Virus record (IMG/VR): IMGVR_UViG_2671180921_000030
Span: 1-45,744 of that record
Origin: a virus
Lineage: Duplodnaviria; Heunggongvirae; Uroviricota; Caudoviricetes
Direction: 5' to 3' (one strand)
DNA length: 45,744 nt
A program made the translations under genes and the position numbers. Below are positions 16,521 through 39,349 of the stretch, piece after piece. The notes under the pieces were generated by a model, which was not told the origin of the DNA, did not search any database, and worked only from the letters and a program-made list of their open reading frames with translations. Position 1 is the stretch's first letter, and the number at the start of each line of letters is the position of its first letter.

Positions 16521-16810
16521 TGGTGAGTTTACGTAAAGCAGCGCGGGGCCAGATGTGCCAGGTCAGAATCCCTGGCTACTGCAATCACAATCCCGAAACG
16601 TCTGTGCTGGCGCATTACAGGCTGGCGGGGACGTGCGGAACAGCGACAAAACCACACGATATGCAGGCAGCGATTGCCTGTAGCTCATGCCACGATTTAA
16701 TCGACGGGCGGGTAAAAACCAGCGATTACACCAAAGAAGAATTACGCCTGATGCATGCAGAAGGTGTTTTTCGCACACAAGAAATCTGGAGAAAGGAAGG
16801 TTATTTATGA
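16520..16810 (+). CDS. YbcO-like (DUF1364) putative nuclease
   Basis: 96-aa Cys/His-rich product LRKAARGQMCQVRIPGYCNHNPETSVLAHYRL...IACSSCHDLIDGR matches recollection of DLP12 YbcO. Confidence 0.6.
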   Translation: MVSLRKAARGQMCQVRIPGYCNHNPETSVLAHYRLAGTCGTATKPHDMQAAIACSSCHDLIDGRVKTSDYTKEELRLMHAEGVFRTQEIWRKEGYL

Positions 16811-17361
16811 TTTACCCAACAAATACAGGCAAAAGCGGGGAACACCTTCGTCTCACCACGCTGGAAAGTGTCTGGATTCAGGGAAAACTGCGCATGTGGG
16901 GGCGCTGGTCGTATATTGGCGGCGGTAAGACGGGAAATATGTTCAACCAGTTGCTGACCTCTAAAAAGCTGACAAAAACGGCAATTAACGAGGCGCTCCG
17001 GAGGATGAAAAAAGCAGGTCTGGACAAACCTGAACTTGAGGCTTTTTTGCGGGATATGATCAACGGCAAGCAAAAAAGCTGGCTGGTGCATTGTACTGAT
17101 GCAGAGGCGTTATGCATTGATCGGGTGATTAGTGAAGTGCTGGCAGAACACCCAGGATTGATTTGTATCCTCCGGCAACGATATGAAGGGCGGGGGATGA
17201 CTAAGCGAAAAATGGCTGAATTGCTGAATGATTCACACCCTGAGTGGTGTTACGCCACGTGCCGTAATCGCATAGATGCGTGGTTGAAAATGGCAGAGTT
17301 TATGCTCTATCTACCGATGCGTGATGCATTCTCTTCCGGGGATCTAAAAACCGTCTGTTGA
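16807..17361 (+). CDS. Q-like late antiterminator (phage 82/21 type, tentative)
   Basis: Trimmed to MIYPTNTGKSG overlapping the upstream stop; WGRW motif; followed by promoter plus terminator as for pR'/tR'. Confidence 0.5.
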   Translation: MIYPTNTGKSGEHLRLTTLESVWIQGKLRMWGRWSYIGGGKTGNMFNQLLTSKKLTKTAINEALRRMKKAGLDKPELEAFLRDMINGKQKSWLVHCTDAEALCIDRVISEVLAEHPGLICILRQRYEGRGMTKRKMAELLNDSHPEWCYATCRNRIDAWLKMAEFMLYLPMRDAFSSGDLKTVC

Positions 17362-32703: not shown

Positions 32704-32891
32704 CGTTTAACAGCCTGCCGGACGGGCTGTCCTACCTTCTCAATCCGGTTGACGCCGGGTTAATTCCCTATACAGCACTTAAAGATGGCTCTGTCGATTT
32801 GTATGACATTGCTCTCTTGAATGACCATCTGGCGGTAAAAGCGGATAACCAGCGGCGCATTGAGAAATGGAGAGAGGATAATGAACGCTGA
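32652..32891 (+). other. Candidate -1 frameshift extension of the tail chaperone
   Basis: Slippery T_TTT_TTG at 32652..32658; the -1 frame is open to TGA at 32889..32891 and overlaps the tape measure start. Confidence 0.5.
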
Positions 32892-34833
32892 AACTATTAA
32901 AGATTTCCTCGTCTCGCTTGGCTTCAGTGTGGATGATGCAGGAGCGAAAAAGTTCGGTTCTGTCCTCGCCGGTACAACTGCAAATGTCATCAAAATGGGA
33001 CTGGCCGTTGAAGGAGCTGCGCTGTCCGTGGTGGCCTTCACGGCTAAGATCGCCTCCGGCCTGGATAATCTTTACTGGGCGTCACAGCGCACCGGCGCGA
33101 CAGTCCAGGGAATTCAGTCTATTGGCTATGCGGTTTCGCAGGTTGGCGGCAGCGTGGACGCTGCGCGCGGGTCACTGGAGAGCCTTGCCCGTTTTATCCG
33201 TAATAGCCCCGGGGCTGAGGGATTTCTGAATCGTCTGGGGGTACAGACCCGTGACGCCAGCGGTAACATGCGCGACATGGCCGCTATCTTTACGGGCGTC
33301 GGCCAGAAGCTCAGCAGCATGCCGTATTACCGGGCTAACCAGTATGCGCAGATGCTGGGCATTGACGAAAATACCCTGATGGCTATGCGTCGCGGAGTGG
33401 GGCAGTTCAGCGCTCAGTATTCAGAAATGGTGAAAGCGATCGGATTTAATGCCGATCAGGCTGCCTTCTCGTCAAACCGGTTTATGACCTCGCTGAAATC
33501 GCTCGGTGAAATGGCCGGGATGGCGCGGGACAAAATCGGATCGAATCTTGCGGACGGACTGGCGGGGCAGATTGATAACCTGCGCAAAAAGATAATTGAA
33601 AATTTTCCCAAAATTGAAGTCACCATCACAAAGGTCATAAAGGGGATCTTCTGGCTGGGTGAGATAGTCGGGCGGGTAGCATTTCGGATAGTCGATGGTG
33701 TCGGAGATATCATCGAGTGGTGGGGGAAACTGGATGCCGAAACGAAAACCCTGATAGAGGTTATCGGCGGTCTGGTTGTCGCCATGCGGATACTTAACTC
33801 TACTTTCTGGATGTCACCTATAGGGCTGATTACCGGTCTGATCGTGGCTCTCGGTCTCTTGTGGGAAGACTACAAAACATGGAAAGAAGGCGGTAACAGC
33901 CTTATCGAATGGGAAAAATGGCAACCGGCAATAGATAAAGCGAAGGATGCGATCACCTGGCTTCGTGATCACCTTCTGGAACTAAAAGATGGTGTTGGCG
34001 GCTGGCAAAATACACTGGAAATCCTCGGTACATTCATCGCGGGTGTCTGGGTATCCAAGGTTCTGGGGGCTTTCGGGAAAATATCTGGTTTGCCGGTACC
34101 GCCATGGTTAAAAGGCTGGATGGCTTATGCTGCGTATTTGTACTCCGATCGCGAAAATATTGGTGCCAGTACGAAGTCATCCTGGGATTACACGAAACAA
34201 AATATTGGAGATTCATTGCGCTGGCTTGGCATTGATACCGATTTTGGTCGTAATCCTCATACCGTAAAAGGCGCAAATATTCAGTCAGATATTCCAGGTA
34301 CTGAGCCGGAACAACATGCGCAGTCTACGAAGCGTACTTTAGCCGATCGGAATAACAATCCAGGGAATATTCGCCCGGTAAGCGGTAAAGGGTTCCGGTT
34401 TTTCGAATCAGCGCTTGAGGGCTGGGAGGCGATGAAAAACCAGCTCATGCGTTACTTTACCGGGAAAACAACCGGACGGGCATTACAGACTATTCAGGAT
34501 ATTGTCAGTACCTGGGCCCCGGCAGGTGATAACAACGATCCGAAAAAGTATGCACAGGATGTTGCGAAATGGATGGGAGTATCACCGAATGCAATATTGA
34601 ATCTTACAGATCCCCGGACTATGGGAGCATTGATGCAGTCGATGGCGCGCAAAGAAGGTTATTCAAACTGGAACAGCCCGCTGGCGTATCAGGCCGCCGC
34701 TGGCAGCCTTAACCAGCAGACTGTTATAAATGTTCATGGAGTTAACAACCCTCAGGAGGCGGCTAATCTGATCGCTGACAAGCAGGGGGCTGTAAATGCC
34801 AGGGCGGTACAGCAATTGAAAGGGCCTGCGTGA
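32881..34833 (+). CDS. Tail tape measure protein
   Basis: Long ORF after the chaperone; start trimmed to ATG preceded by GGAGAGAGGA. Confidence 0.8.
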   Translation: MNAETIKDFLVSLGFSVDDAGAKKFGSVLAGTTANVIKMGLAVEGAALSVVAFTAKIASGLDNLYWASQRTGATVQGIQSIGYAVSQVGGSVDAARGSLESLARFIRNSPGAEGFLNRLGVQTRDASGNMRDMAAIFTGVGQKLSSMPYYRANQYAQMLGIDENTLMAMRRGVGQFSAQYSEMVKAIGFNADQAAFSSNRFMTSLKSLGEMAGMARDKIGSNLADGLAGQIDNLRKKIIENFPKIEVTITKVIKGIFWLGEIVGRVAFRIVDGVGDIIEWWGKLDAETKTLIEVIGGLVVAMRILNSTFWMSPIGLITGLIVALGLLWEDYKTWKEGGNSLIEWEKWQPAIDKAKDAITWLRDHLLELKDGVGGWQNTLEILGTFIAGVWVSKVLGAFGKISGLPVPPWLKGWMAYAAYLYSDRENIGASTKSSWDYTKQNIGDSLRWLGIDTDFGRNPHTVKGANIQSDIPGTEPEQHAQSTKRTLADRNNNPGNIRPVSGKGFRFFESALEGWEAMKNQLMRYFTGKTTGRALQTIQDIVSTWAPAGDNNDPKKYAQDVAKWMGVSPNAILNLTDPRTMGALMQSMARKEGYSNWNSPLAYQAAAGSLNQQTVINVHGVNNPQEAANLIADKQGAVNARAVQQLKGPA

Positions 34834-35483
34834 TGGACTTTTTATCTGTTTTACTGCAGCAGCGAACCCGCTCAATAGGAATCATTATTCCTGATGTGGT
34901 TATTACCGAAAAGCACACAGACGCCCTGGAAATTACGGAACATCCGGTTGAACAGCCCACGAATGCTGGTGCCAGTGGTGAGGGTGCTGGTTACATATCA
35001 GAACACGCATTCAGGCGCCCTTCTGAGGTTGTGATGGAAACCGGTTTTTCCGGAGGCGGATCGCTGCTTGATTTTGCCAGTAACCTGACGGCTACCAGTT
35101 TACTGGGGCTGAGCCCGAAAGAACTGTATCAGGAACTGCTTAACCTGCAGCGGAATCGTATTCCTTTCGATGTGACAACCGGCAAGCGTATTTACAACAA
35201 TATGTTGATAAAAACGCTGGAGGTCACGACCGATAAGAGTAGTGAAAATGTGCTTCTGGCGACACTTACCCTCAGGGAAGTAATTATTACCTCCACGCAG
35301 TCAGTCAGGGTTGCCCAGAAAAACAATATGACCGAGGGAGTCGGAACGTCTGCTGTGCAGAATACAGGCACCAAAACAACGGTGCCGCCGAATAATTCCA
35401 TTCTGAAATCGCTGCCACAGATGGCGCAAGAAGGTATCTCCACTGTTGATGGATATTTGAGCAATTTATTTCTGGAAAGGTGA
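34830..35483 (+). CDS. Tail/baseplate assembly protein
   Basis: 217-aa ORF with ATGA overlap after the tape measure gene. Confidence 0.45.
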   Translation: MMDFLSVLLQQRTRSIGIIIPDVVITEKHTDALEITEHPVEQPTNAGASGEGAGYISEHAFRRPSEVVMETGFSGGGSLLDFASNLTATSLLGLSPKELYQELLNLQRNRIPFDVTTGKRIYNNMLIKTLEVTTDKSSENVLLATLTLREVIITSTQSVRVAQKNNMTEGVGTSAVQNTGTKTTVPPNNSILKSLPQMAQEGISTVDGYLSNLFLER

Positions 35484-35486
35484 TTC

Positions 35487-35789
35487 ATGGAAGCCGTAGA
35501 AATCCCACTGGTTGCTGACAATCAGACTTTTGCCACCACAATTAACGGTTCGGTTTATCACCTGTCTGTCATCTGGCGAGGCGAGTACTGGGTTCTGGAT
35601 CTTGCTGACAGCAATGGCTCCGCCATTATATCAGGTATACCGATGATTACGGGGGCTGACCTGCTGGCACAGTATCGATATATGGATCTGGGTTTTTCTC
35701 TGGTGGTGCTCTGCGACGTGGCGGGGCAGGAGAATCCAACGCAATTCGATCTTGGAACGCTCTCACACCTCTATGTTTTCACGGAGTAA
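35487..35789 (+). CDS. Small baseplate-region protein
   Basis: 100-aa ORF. Confidence 0.4.
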   Translation: MEAVEIPLVADNQTFATTINGSVYHLSVIWRGEYWVLDLADSNGSAIISGIPMITGADLLAQYRYMDLGFSLVVLCDVAGQENPTQFDLGTLSHLYVFTE

Positions 35790-35791
35790 CA

Positions 35792-36826
35792 ATGTCGAAA
35801 AACTGGATGCGTCACTTTGAATTATTGCTTGTTAATGATAAGGGCGACGGGATAAAAATTTCTGAGCTTAAAGTCACTTTCAATATTCAGAAAATGCCTG
35901 CGACCATATTTAATGGATTCGTTGGGAATTTTAAGGTTTATAACCTGTCCCCTACCACTCAGAACCGGATTATGCAGAAGGAGTTTTCGCGTATACAGGT
36001 TATTGCCGGATACAAGGGGCAACCGGATGCAGCAGGTAATTATCCTGATGAAAACGTTGGTATGATATTCAATGGAGATATCCGTTTTACTGTTACTGGT
36101 AAAGATAATGCCACAGACAGTTGGATCATGTTGCAGTGTATTGACAGCTGGGAAGGCCACCTGAACGCAAGTGTGAAAACCACAGTGGCAGCTGGCTGGA
36201 AGTACAGAGATCTTTTCAGTCTGGGTATGAAATCATTCGAACCATATGGCATCGAATCCGGCGCAGTTCCTGACATGCCGGAAACGGTATTTCCCCGAGG
36301 TCGCGTTGTTTATCAAAACACATCAAGGTTGATGAATCATATCGCAGGGCAGTGTAAAGCTAACTGGTGGTATGAAAATAATCTGGTAAATATTGTTCCT
36401 GAAGATAAATATATTGGTGTTGCTACGGTGTTGAATGCTAACACCGGGCTTATCGGTATGCCACAGCAGACGATGGGAGCTGGCGTAAATGTCAGATGTC
36501 TGATTAATCCAAATATTAAGCTCGGTGGGCTTATTCGTCTGGATCAGGCATCTGTATACCGTGCCTCTTTGAGTAATGACCAGGTAGCGAAATCGCCAGC
36601 ACGACTGGATGAGTCTGAAAGCGACGGTAATCTCTACGTTAACGGTCTGCCAGGCATGTCACAGCCTGCCAGCATTAATACTGACGGTGATTACATTGTG
36701 GGCAGCATTGATTATACTGGCGACACCCGAGGGCAGGCGTGGTATATGGACCTGCTTTGCCTGGCTAAAGGTGGCAAAGAACTATTGGCAAAAGGCACTT
36801 TGGACAAAGTCGGAGATGTAGAGTGA
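35792..36826 (+). CDS. Baseplate hub-like protein
   Basis: 344-aa ORF before the spike/W/J genes. Confidence 0.5.
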   Translation: MSKNWMRHFELLLVNDKGDGIKISELKVTFNIQKMPATIFNGFVGNFKVYNLSPTTQNRIMQKEFSRIQVIAGYKGQPDAAGNYPDENVGMIFNGDIRFTVTGKDNATDSWIMLQCIDSWEGHLNASVKTTVAAGWKYRDLFSLGMKSFEPYGIESGAVPDMPETVFPRGRVVYQNTSRLMNHIAGQCKANWWYENNLVNIVPEDKYIGVATVLNANTGLIGMPQQTMGAGVNVRCLINPNIKLGGLIRLDQASVYRASLSNDQVAKSPARLDESESDGNLYVNGLPGMSQPASINTDGDYIVGSIDYTGDTRGQAWYMDLLCLAKGGKELLAKGTLDKVGDVE

Positions 36827-37158
36827 AAAAAGTATTTTTTTGTTTATTCTTGGCCCTGCCGTTAACAGTTTCGGCGGCAACGCAGTGCGGACCATTCCGC
36901 TTTGATGCTGGTAATGATGGCCTCATGCACATCAATGGTCAAAAGCCAGAAACACAAAAAATGACCTTTTTGAAACAAAAAGACGATTTCGATAATGTCA
37001 TGATGCAATGGATGTTACCTGATCCTAATACTGGACGTTGGTTAGGTATGGACTACATCAAACGAAACAAAAAAGCGATCCTCAACGTTGAAGTTATCCG
37101 CAAAAATATGGACGAGCCTCGGGAGTTCTGGACGTATGATTGCCGGAAGGTGAAGTGA
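36823..37158 (+). CDS. Signal-peptide-bearing small protein inside the baseplate operon
   Basis: GTG start overlapping the upstream stop (GTGA) with GGAG upstream; N-terminus MKKVFFCLFLALPLTVSAATQC. Confidence 0.45.
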   Translation: MKKVFFCLFLALPLTVSAATQCGPFRFDAGNDGLMHINGQKPETQKMTFLKQKDDFDNVMMQWMLPDPNTGRWLGMDYIKRNKKAILNVEVIRKNMDEPREFWTYDCRKVK

Positions 37159-37385
37159 ATTACATTGGCGTCCAGCTTCTGCAGAACAGCATGGATGCGC
37201 CGAAAATCATCGAATCTTTCCCTTGTAAAAAAGTGGCTGGGTGAGAGTAAGAAATTTTAACCAGTTCTCCTTTCTCTCCTTAGAAAAGAGCAAAGCATTA
37301 GTCTAGAATATGGATTAATGAATAAAACAACAGGTTGTTGATGATGCCTTCCAATGATAAATTCCTCCGTTAAGGAGGATGATTA

Positions 37386-38159
37386 ATGTCACTTGCACTG
37401 TATAGCAAACTGAATGAAACGCTTGAGATGCTTACTTCACGTATTGATGAAGGGCAGCAACTGGATGCTTTTACGCTAAAGCGAGTTGTCTCTGAAGCAG
37501 GCAAAATCCCTGATGAGCCAGTTAAGTTGATGGTGTTGGCTCTGGCTTATGGAGCTGCGCATCAACATGTTGAAGCTGTCGGTTTTTTTCAGGAGGCAGT
37601 TGCATACCGTGACGAAACAGTAGCCAGAAATTATCTTTCTTACCTCAGTCATACTGGACAGTATGAATTGTACCGAGAAGAGGCTGTGAGGTTAGCTCGG
37701 GAAATTACCAGCCTTGCTTTGTGCATACGAGCAAGGAATGCAGCCTATGCTGACGGCGATGGTGAACTATCACTCTTTTTTGCTCGAAAAGCTCTGTCTA
37801 TGATCGGAAGTGAGAGCGAGCGAGAAAGCATGGAGTCAGATATCATGGAAAAAAAACGGGCATTAGATACATTCATAAGTGTGACTGATTTAAGCACGAA
37901 TGAGATAAATCTTCTTTCCAGAACAATTACTAATGTCGCTAAGAATTATGGTGTTTTAGCTATTTCTCATGACTATGTCACAAGCCCGGATGGGGATGCT
38001 GGCATAGTTTGTGATGTTTTATGTGAGGATGCCGATATGCTTTCCGATATGGATATTGACGTTGCTACTGAAATTGCAATGAATGAGATCTTCGCTGGAA
38101 AGAATGTGACGGCCTGGTTCCGCGGGCGTAATCGGCAGGAGATTCACTTCACGATATGA
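37386..38159 (+). CDS. Hypothetical protein, first gene of an inserted two-gene module
   Basis: 257-aa ORF after a 227-bp AT-rich leader with TAAGGAGG; ATGA overlap with the next gene. Confidence 0.5.
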   Translation: MSLALYSKLNETLEMLTSRIDEGQQLDAFTLKRVVSEAGKIPDEPVKLMVLALAYGAAHQHVEAVGFFQEAVAYRDETVARNYLSYLSHTGQYELYREEAVRLAREITSLALCIRARNAAYADGDGELSLFFARKALSMIGSESERESMESDIMEKKRALDTFISVTDLSTNEINLLSRTITNVAKNYGVLAISHDYVTSPDGDAGIVCDVLCEDADMLSDMDIDVATEIAMNEIFAGKNVTAWFRGRNRQEIHFTI

Positions 38160-38536
38160 GTATCCAAGGAAAAGAGTTCATTGACGCATCCCGTGCATGT
38201 TTAGACACTGGTATTGAGTCTGGTTTCAGAAGTGCTATTTCACGGGCATACTATGCGTTCTACCATGAAACATGTGGCCTTTTGACGTGTTGCCCGCCGA
38301 CAACACATGATGGAGTTGTTCAATATCTTATTTCGGATGCAAGGCGGAAGGATGAACCTTATGAGTTAATGTCTCTTATCCAGTTGGGGGCAGTTCTCAA
38401 ACAGCAAAAAATGAAGCGTAAGCGCGCGGACTACGATCTAACAGAGACTATTTTGCAAACTGAAGCAAGTTCATCTATTGCAGTGGTGAACAAGATGTTG
38501 GACAAAATAGCAGAAATGAAATCCCAAGTAGCCTAG
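38156..38536 (+). CDS. HEPN-like small protein
   Basis: 126-aa ORF with R-x6-H motif (SRAYYAFYHE); terminator follows. Confidence 0.45.
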   Translation: MSIQGKEFIDASRACLDTGIESGFRSAISRAYYAFYHETCGLLTCCPPTTHDGVVQYLISDARRKDEPYELMSLIQLGAVLKQQKMKRKRADYDLTETILQTEASSSIAVVNKMLDKIAEMKSQVA

Positions 38537-38553
38537 CAAAAAGTTTATTTACG

Positions 38554-38578
38554 AACCCGCCATCCGGCGGGTTTTTTG
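38554..38578 (+). terminator. Rho-independent terminator closing the inserted module
   Basis: Stem cccgcc/ggcggg, 4-nt loop, T6. Confidence 0.5.
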
Positions 38579-38596
38579 CTTTCTGGAGACATATGA

Positions 38597-39349
38597 ATGC
38601 CCGTTTCTTTAAGCGCTCAACTTGGTAGCAAAGAACAGGCCGATGTAAGACTTGCTGGCTCTGTCATGTCGGCGCTGCGTGTTTCTATGCCCGGTATCGT
38701 CCAGTCATTTGATCCGGACACGGTAACAGTGGTTGTTCAACCTGCGATTAAAGGCTATGAGCCGGACTCAAATGGAATCAACCAGTCGACGACATTACCC
38801 CTGCTGGTGGATGTGCCAGTGGTATTTCCGCGCGGCGGAGGCTGTACGTTGACTTTTCCAGTTAAAGCCGGTGATGAATGTTTGGTGATTTTTGCCGATC
38901 GTTGTATTGATTTCTGGTGGCAGAGTGGCGGGATACAGGAGCCGGTCGATGACAGAATGCATGATTTATCGGATGCGTTTTGTATTGTCGGTCCCCAGTC
39001 GCAGGCAAGGAAGATTAGCGGTATTAATACCAGTGCCACACAGTTGCGTAGTGATGACGGCAGCACCTATTTTGAGCTTAATCCTGATACCAGGAAAATT
39101 AAAATTGTCGCTCCGGGTGGTCTTGATGTGGTTGCCCCTCTGGCTGATTTTTCTGAGAAAGTAACCATTCATGGCCTGTTAACCTGGATGGGTGGCATGG
39201 TGGGGTCTGTGGTTTCTGGTGTGGCTTCAAAAATCACTGGTGCTGTTGAGTTTTTGGGTAGCGTGAAGGCTAACGGCAAGCCAATTGATGATACGCACAC
39301 TCATGGTGGTGTTCAGCGCGGTGGAAGCAATACCGACGGAGTAAACTGA
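38597..39349 (+). CDS. Baseplate spike protein (gpV-like)
   Basis: 250-aa ORF upstream of W- and J-like genes. Confidence 0.65.
   Translation: MPVSLSAQLGSKEQADVRLAGSVMSALRVSMPGIVQSFDPDTVTVVVQPAIKGYEPDSNGINQSTTLPLLVDVPVVFPRGGGCTLTFPVKAGDECLVIFADRCIDFWWQSGGIQEPVDDRMHDLSDAFCIVGPQSQARKISGINTSATQLRSDDGSTYFELNPDTRKIKIVAPGGLDVVAPLADFSEKVTIHGLLTWMGGMVGSVVSGVASKITGAVEFLGSVKANGKPIDDTHTHGGVQRGGSNTDGVN

Follow-up and report, generated by a model that had tools for sequence, protein, structure and literature searches.

The stretch of DNA considered here is the 45,744-nucleotide (nt) IMG/VR record IMGVR_UViG_2671180921_000030 (in the following, at its full length, the window), an Escherichia coli prophage whose early, Q and lysis region is lambdoid and whose contractile tail includes a DUF3383 sheath and a DUF3277 tube. 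In its tail module the gene of the baseplate hub is directly followed by a small gene whose product of 111 amino acids (aa) is very probably exported and can be regarded, with high confidence, as a non-structural accessory protein. The GTG start codon of this gene (36823-36825) overlaps the TGA stop codon of the hub gene (36824-36826) as GTGA, and its translation begins with MKKVFFCLFLALPLTVSAATQC. A preliminary description of the window had given the same coordinates, overlap and translation, all of which agree with the sequence, and had called the upstream gene a baseplate gene, an assignment confirmed by the match of its product to phrog_196 (Table 1). In all of the relatives examined the start of the small gene abuts or overlaps the hub stop, and in diverse relatives the start codon is ATG, GTG or TTG. 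The stretch comprising the hub gene and the small gene is 99.3% identical to a prophage of strain PK8241 and is matched in 195 of 5426 complete E. coli genomes, the exact sequence of the small protein is found on at least 1000 contigs, and prophages of this type are common in E. coli, Salmonella and Klebsiella.

A homology search, proposed along with the preliminary description, places the small protein in PHROG 3443 (E 7e-48, residues 2-111), a narrow family: a profile search of 1.84 billion representatives matched only 56 proteins. WP_000755137.1, which occupies the same position in strain TUM1880 and is 99.1% identical to the small protein, carries the PGAP and newer RefSeq name ‘STY1065/STY2022 family phage-derived protein’, and the homologues of the small protein, 134 in number, are all from Enterobacterales. 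Two large Gram-positive surface-repeat proteins among the representative matches (P0159 and P0176) were judged to be repeat-driven and irrelevant. Scans of the protein returned no match in Pfam, NCBIfam or PADLOC, literature searches, both general and for STY1065/STY2022, found no study of the gene, and the paper on phage SEN34 contains no virion proteomics. The family is named but uncharacterised, and the gene can be placed among the morons known from late operons.

The signal peptide that the preliminary description had assigned to the small protein stands up well. It was judged by an in-house heuristic, which looks for a net positive n-region, an uncharged hydrophobic core of nine residues and small residues at positions –3 and –1, with the cleavage site within about 35 residues as the criterion for Sec and signal peptidase I. 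The small protein passes this heuristic strongly (charge +3, core hydropathy 3.14, possible sites between TVS and A or between VSA and A), and cleavage would probably occur after A18 or A19. The heuristic is also passed by 102 of 103 full-length homologues, and within the window by four of the 50 likely genes, namely the small open reading frame (ORF), an Rz-like spanin (a genuine membrane protein) and two others that pass only weakly. In the family, residues 1-19 are poorly conserved, with a majority fraction of 0.37 vs. 0.63-0.81 in the mature part, and the divergent N-termini nevertheless show all three features that the heuristic looks for. Two cysteines, Cys22 (36886-36888) and Cys107 (37141-37143), are invariant in all of 48 aligned sequences; they lie in the first and last strands of the predicted fold described below, an arrangement which would fit a disulfide formed in the periplasm. 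One UniRef entry bears the label ‘Lipoprotein’, and this identity was ruled out since a lipobox, taken as [LVI][ASTVI][GAS]C at the end of the signal peptide, is missing: Cys22 is preceded by A-T-Q, and in relatives by M-Q, S-Q, T-S or similar residues, with the cysteine 3-14 residues past the predicted cleavage site. Rare fusion relatives join the small domain to an N-terminal lipoprotein or signal-bearing domain; in P0126 and P0134 there is a true lipobox, which belongs to the separate N-terminal domain, and at locus L107 a fusion with a lipoprotein N-terminal domain occupies the same place between hub and spike genes. Because the signal features are conserved throughout the family, the cysteine pair is invariant and the fusions carry lipoprotein or signal sequences, we consider that the small protein is very probably exported.

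The region between the hub gene and the gene of the gpV-like spike, here called the slot, was surveyed in 80 viral contigs retrieved via the hub and in 22 genome loci found via the small protein. In each of the 80 viral contigs the hub gene is followed first by a gene for an exported protein, and in 71 of them this gene, directly after the hub, belongs to PHROG 3443. All 22 genome loci have this tail context around the small gene; at two, L023 and L024, the gene lies 0.5-1 kb past the hub, not immediately after it, and in Izhakiella and Hafnia, where the tail modules are otherwise complete, only C-terminal remnants are present (L027:6001-6150 and L028:6001-6072), which suggests that the small gene can be lost or disrupted. 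In the remaining nine viral contigs unrelated exported proteins are encoded 10-20 nt after the hub stop, and five of these nine hubs are 91-96% identical to that of the window. Seven of the nine carry in the slot an exported Cys/Thr/Gly-rich protein of 80-84 aa with TNTGTTYC repeats, for which no family match was found, and two carry lipoproteins of 233-242 aa.

Further signal-peptide proteins are found behind the first slot gene, one of 136 aa (L050:4780-5535 and L069:6091-6846) and one of 113 aa belonging to phrog_13007 (L041:6312-6653). A remote homology between the small-protein family and the 136-aa protein was merely hinted at by hhalign (probability 33%) and is not claimed. In the Burkholderia phage BgManors32, a distant relative, a gene encoding a 152-aa signal-peptide protein (L109:3993-4451, minus strand) also lies between hub and spike genes, on the strand opposite to theirs; the junction of these two genes may attract exported accessory genes more widely.

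Comparison of closely related loci shows that the small gene occurs as alleles whose movement does not depend on that of the tail genes. The hub and the plug of L036-L042 are 97-100% identical to those of the window, as is the spike in five of six loci, and the small protein is just 60-65% identical, while in L052 a hub of 80% identity stands beside a small protein of 99% identity. The differences between alleles concentrate in the signal peptide and in the N-terminal half of the mature protein, and the breakpoints of these exchanges with respect to the window lie near the 3' end of the hub gene and inside the C-terminal third of the small gene. Furthermore, in two polylysogens the two resident copies of the small protein are 64-70% identical beside hubs that are 90-98% identical. 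A co-evolution of small protein and hub was considered, with a correlation of 0.74 over 94 loci, and was rejected in view of these clear swaps (60-65% beside hubs of 98%, 99% beside a hub of 80%); linkage, not an obligatory partnership, explains the correlation.

Two further elements of the locus concern its transcription. About 105 nt upstream of the small ORF, within the hub gene, lies the promoter-like sequence ATTACA-N17-TATACT, a scan match that taken alone is at chance level. It falls in codons with unusual constraint: in a codon alignment of 77 dereplicated hubs, ranging from 100% to 42% amino-acid identity, just six of 208 conserved degenerate codon columns are nearly without synonymous variation, and four of these six are codons 300, 304, 308 and 309. 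Codon 300 is GAT in 54 of 54 sequences, codon 308 is TAT in 75 of 76 and codon 309 is ACT in 71 of 73, although ACT makes up just 21% of the Thr codons in these hub genes, and the codons neighbouring the frozen ones vary freely. Hubs in which the amino acids are changed keep a –10-like hexamer (TATAAT in L093, TATCAT in L090-L092), the Y-T residues at the –10 position are not conserved in hubs of phages that have no slot, and the element is present whichever exported protein occupies the slot. We infer that it functions as a promoter. No RNA family was detected by Rfam in positions 35000-39500. The second element is an intrinsic terminator. In loci free of cargo, AACCCGC-loop-GCGGGTT followed by a T run is found in the 65-80 nt that separate the small gene from the spike gene; the terminator of the window has the same stem sequence and stands after the cargo of the window.

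The distance between the small gene and the spike gene varies from about 65 nt to 3.6 kb and is filled with unrelated cargo. In the window the cargo consists of two overlapping genes preceded by a promoter-like site of their own, and the similarity of the window to other prophages ends at 37231 and resumes at 38540. The cargo pair (257 and 126 aa) has no Pfam, NCBIfam or PADLOC match; comparable pairs (273 aa with 127-140 aa) are present in L085 and L099, homologues of the 126-aa protein are present in L022, L024 and L025, and the pair may be a defence or toxin-antitoxin-like one.

The features described so far correspond to the anatomy of a moron, the criteria being taken in the sense reportedly used by Juhala et al. 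in 2000. The small gene lies between two genes that are adjacent or overlapping in five related phages (Ralstonia phage PY059YO380, Acinetobacter phage Ab105-1phi, Rosemountvirus UPF_BP2, Aaphi23 and Pam3), the content of the slot varies between close relatives, and a factor-independent terminator is found downstream, as far as can be read from the sequence. The small gene is likely to be an independently transcribed moron. This anatomy, the variable cargo hotspot headed by the small gene and the named family had been missed in the preliminary description, and the synonymously constrained promoter-like element embedded in the hub gene and the ‘exported-protein slot’ are new points.

Table 1. 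Position of the small gene, of its candidate regulatory elements and of neighbouring or alternative genes (positions refer to the window unless preceded by a locus number).
Feature	Position	Strand	Remarks
Small exported protein gene	36823-37158	+	111 aa; GTG start; stop 37156-37158
Signal peptide, residues 1-18 (MKKVFFCLFLALPLTVSA)	36823-36876	+	Predicted; heuristic and family conservation
Mature domain, about 93 aa	36877-37155	+	Predicted 8-stranded beta domain
Shine-Dalgarno sequence GGAG of the small ORF	36812-36815	+	7 nt 5' of GTG; read off the sequence
Promoter-like ATTACA-N17-TATACT	36690-36718	+	Inside hub codons 300-309; consensus scan
Intrinsic terminator GAACCCGCC-ATCC-GGCGGGTTT and T run	38553-38574	+	Scan; 23 nt before the spike gene
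Baseplate hub gene (344 aa)	35792-36826	+	phrog_196, E 8e-80; Pfam E217_GP41, 1.4e-7
Spike gene, gpV-like (250 aa)	38597-39349	+	Right border of the slot; Pfam N-terminal spike domain, 1.5e-44, and GpV Apex motif
Two-gene cargo, 1.3 kb	37232-38539	+	Between small gene and terminator
Cargo promoter-like site	37281-37309	+	Consensus scan
Cargo ORF 1 (257 aa)	37386-38159	+	phrog_17809
Cargo ORF 2 (126 aa)	38156-38536	+	phrog_5176; ATGA overlap with ORF 1
Q-like antiterminator	16687-17361		
TNTGTTYC-repeat protein	L041, L043, L048, L050, L051, L069, L088; e.g., L050:4545-4787		First ORF past the hub
Slot lipoproteins	L085:6048-6749, L099:6068-6796		True lipoboxes TFGC and LTGC; mutually homologous

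The AlphaFold model of the small protein is confident and predicts a small, compact, 8-stranded up-and-down beta domain with short strands of 6-10 residues. A profile search of the PDB gave only chance-level matches to nanobodies (E 0.025 or worse), and Foldseek searches of the model against the PDB and BFVD yielded no hit with an E-value of 0.001 or lower. A reading as an outer-membrane barrel was rejected by inference from the size of the mature protein, the short strands, the Cys pair and the basic RKVK C-terminus, which is not aromatic.

Taken together, the locus can be described by the following scheme. The small ORF would stand first, as the constant member, in a moron cassette that has entered the hub-spike junction of a contractile-tailed Enterobacterales prophage with lambdoid regulation. 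In the lysogen, a sigma-70 promoter lying within the hub gene would drive transcription of the small gene and of any cargo behind it as far as the terminator, so that the protein would be made constitutively and exported to the periplasm. In the late operon of lambda, antitermination by Q lets the late transcript pass terminators, and since the prophage encodes a Q-like antiterminator, late transcription would, by this established biology, read through the terminator; during lytic growth the small gene would also be translated by coupling to the hub gene. In the most speculative step, the periplasmic protein would take no part in virion assembly and would block an envelope-stage step of infection by phages with related tails. 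That the small protein is an exported moron protein acting in the envelope appears to us reasonably probable. Its association with a single tail module, the periplasmic location, the swapping of alleles and a slot occupied by exported proteins throughout make an anti-phage role at the envelope the most economical guess, and superinfection exclusion can be put forward tentatively as its function; in its place of action the protein would then be comparable to T4 Spackle, P1 Sim or HK97 gp15. According to the cryo-electron microscopy (cryo-EM) paper on phage E217, the hub stays on the tip of the tube after contraction and the spike is lost; a hub-type protein would thus be exposed in the periplasm, where it might, speculatively, be the target of the small protein by analogy with E217. 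Combining these points, the hub-spike junction may be a dedicated ‘envelope slot’ in which a promoter within hub codons drives the exported protein of the slot in the lysogen, and the STY1065/STY2022 beta-barrel may be an allele-specific periplasmic blocker that binds the tube-tip hub, or the tape measure, exposed after the spike has been shed and so stops the entry of DNA; this complete reading we regard as doubtful. The tape measure protein of the window (32860-34833) has a C-terminal domain of the cell-wall hydrolase type, annotated in RefSeq as ‘lytic transglycosylase catalytic’, and this domain is a possible target for a periplasmic inhibitor.

A role in the tail itself has to be weighed against this scheme. 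The hydrophobic N-terminus could be an uncleaved anchor or a membrane-inserting segment, with a function in hub assembly or in penetration, and the constant position of the small gene beside the hub gene, its translational coupling to it and the fact that it diverges, overall, in step with the hub (Spearman 0.74) are in line with such a role. However, the small gene is absent from homologous baseplates: the preliminary description had named conservation as a tail component in homologous phages as what would speak against a periplasmic factor, and what was found is that the hub and spike genes lie side by side in the five related phages listed above, one of which, Pam3, has a structurally solved baseplate. 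The solved E217 structure lacks the small protein as well, the cryo-EM paper listing the hub gp41 and the tip gp43 as virion proteins and never mentioning gp42. In addition, an unrelated exported protein, the Cys/Thr-rich one of 80-84 aa, takes the place of the small protein beside hubs that are 91-96% identical to that of the window. The small protein is therefore not a conserved tail component. The alleles swapped within otherwise identical tail modules, the remnants left in L027 and L028, and the AxA-type cleavage region and invariant Cys pair, which point to the periplasm, also argue against membership in the tail, which is very improbable.

Two other explanations accept export and differ in when and for whom the protein acts. 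It could be an envelope factor of the late phase that is produced along with the tail proteins, for the most part from the late transcript, and acts while the cell lyses or afterwards. It might, for example, mask a receptor or an entry component so that progeny are spared from adsorbing to lysing cells and debris, as does T5 Llp (PMC9586334), or guard the infected cell against lysis from without. The T5 Llp precedent, the start codon placed at or across the hub stop in every relative examined, together with a good Shine-Dalgarno sequence, and the occurrence of the gene in this tail module and never elsewhere, in the family profile search and the locus survey, all suit this explanation, which leaves unaccounted for both the synonymously frozen promoter-like element and the terminator standing just after the gene in minimal loci. 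These two elements suggest an expression uncoupled from the tail genes, and we consider a purely late role unlikely; a late-phase role and a role in the lysogen are not mutually exclusive. The protein could instead have nothing to do with phages and serve lysogenic conversion to the advantage of the host, for instance by inhibiting a lysozyme or a protease in the periplasm, by binding a small ligand there in the manner of avidin or lipocalins, or as a stress or virulence factor comparable to lambda Bor or Lom. Avidin/streptavidin, lipocalin-like barrels and the MliC/PliC inhibitors share with the small protein a small 8-stranded up-and-down beta domain and export; no match to the Pfam MliC family and no close structural likeness to MliC/PliC inhibitors was found, and we would give this explanation only a small probability. 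Several observations also weigh against an independently transcribed moron with an exclusion function. The tight translational coupling to the hub gene argues for the importance of late, lytic-phase expression; the promoter-like element matches the consensus at 9 of 12 positions, and the synonymous constraint in the hub codons could have another cause; the G+C content is about 0.45 in the small ORF and in the hub gene alike, so that nothing in the composition points to a foreign origin. Across genera the mature protein shows strong conservation, unlike in a classic arms race, although alleles do differ in the N-terminal half, and any exclusion would not be absolute, because two polylysogens carry two prophages of this tail type. 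Finally, profile, PADLOC, PDB and Foldseek searches found no similarity to any known exclusion protein or inhibitor.

Known systems offer several comparisons. P1 Sim and phi80 Cor are phage proteins that are exported and processed and prevent infection at adsorption or at a later stage, as does T5 Llp (PMC9586334). All three resemble the small protein in being exported, and the genes of Llp and Cor adjoin tail or receptor-binding genes; Llp and Cor bind FhuA as lipoproteins, unlike the small protein, which has no lipobox, and none of the three is homologous to it. T4 Spackle (gp61.3) inhibits the tail lysozyme gp5 in the periplasm (PMC7677548). It is likewise a small signal-peptide protein of a contractile-tailed phage and exemplifies the kind of mechanism proposed here, but it is encoded by an early gene outside the tail cluster. 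Sequence and fold searches with the small protein gave no match to Spackle, to Llp or to inhibitors of the MliC/PliC type. Among morons in late operons, HK97 gp15 and JBD26 Tab are cited in PMC10884400 as encoding exclusion or defence proteins. Like these and like lambda lom and bor, the small gene is an extra gene between conserved morphogenetic genes, absent from relatives, with an apparent promoter of its own, an intrinsic terminator, a product predicted to act in the envelope and an expected read-through by Q. It differs from them in that its candidate promoter lies inside the upstream structural gene, its start overlaps the hub stop, its composition is the same as that of its neighbours and its protein family is unrelated.

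Beyond the slot, the tail-fibre region of the window (41560-44307) contains opposed tail-fibre assembly genes and a pinE-like invertase gene (43744-44307), and looks like an invertible host-range switch.

Whatever the function of the small protein, the frozen promoter-like element and a slot whose first gene encodes an exported protein in every one of the viral contigs surveyed are concrete cases, open to testing, of accessory genes being built into the expression of a structural operon. If the protein does block infection in the periplasm, it would affect the host range of phages and the outcome of phage therapy in E. coli, Salmonella and Klebsiella, and the few known entry-blocking proteins would be joined by one with a new fold; if it acts as an allele-specific blocker, it would represent a new structural class of superinfection-exclusion protein in these bacteria.
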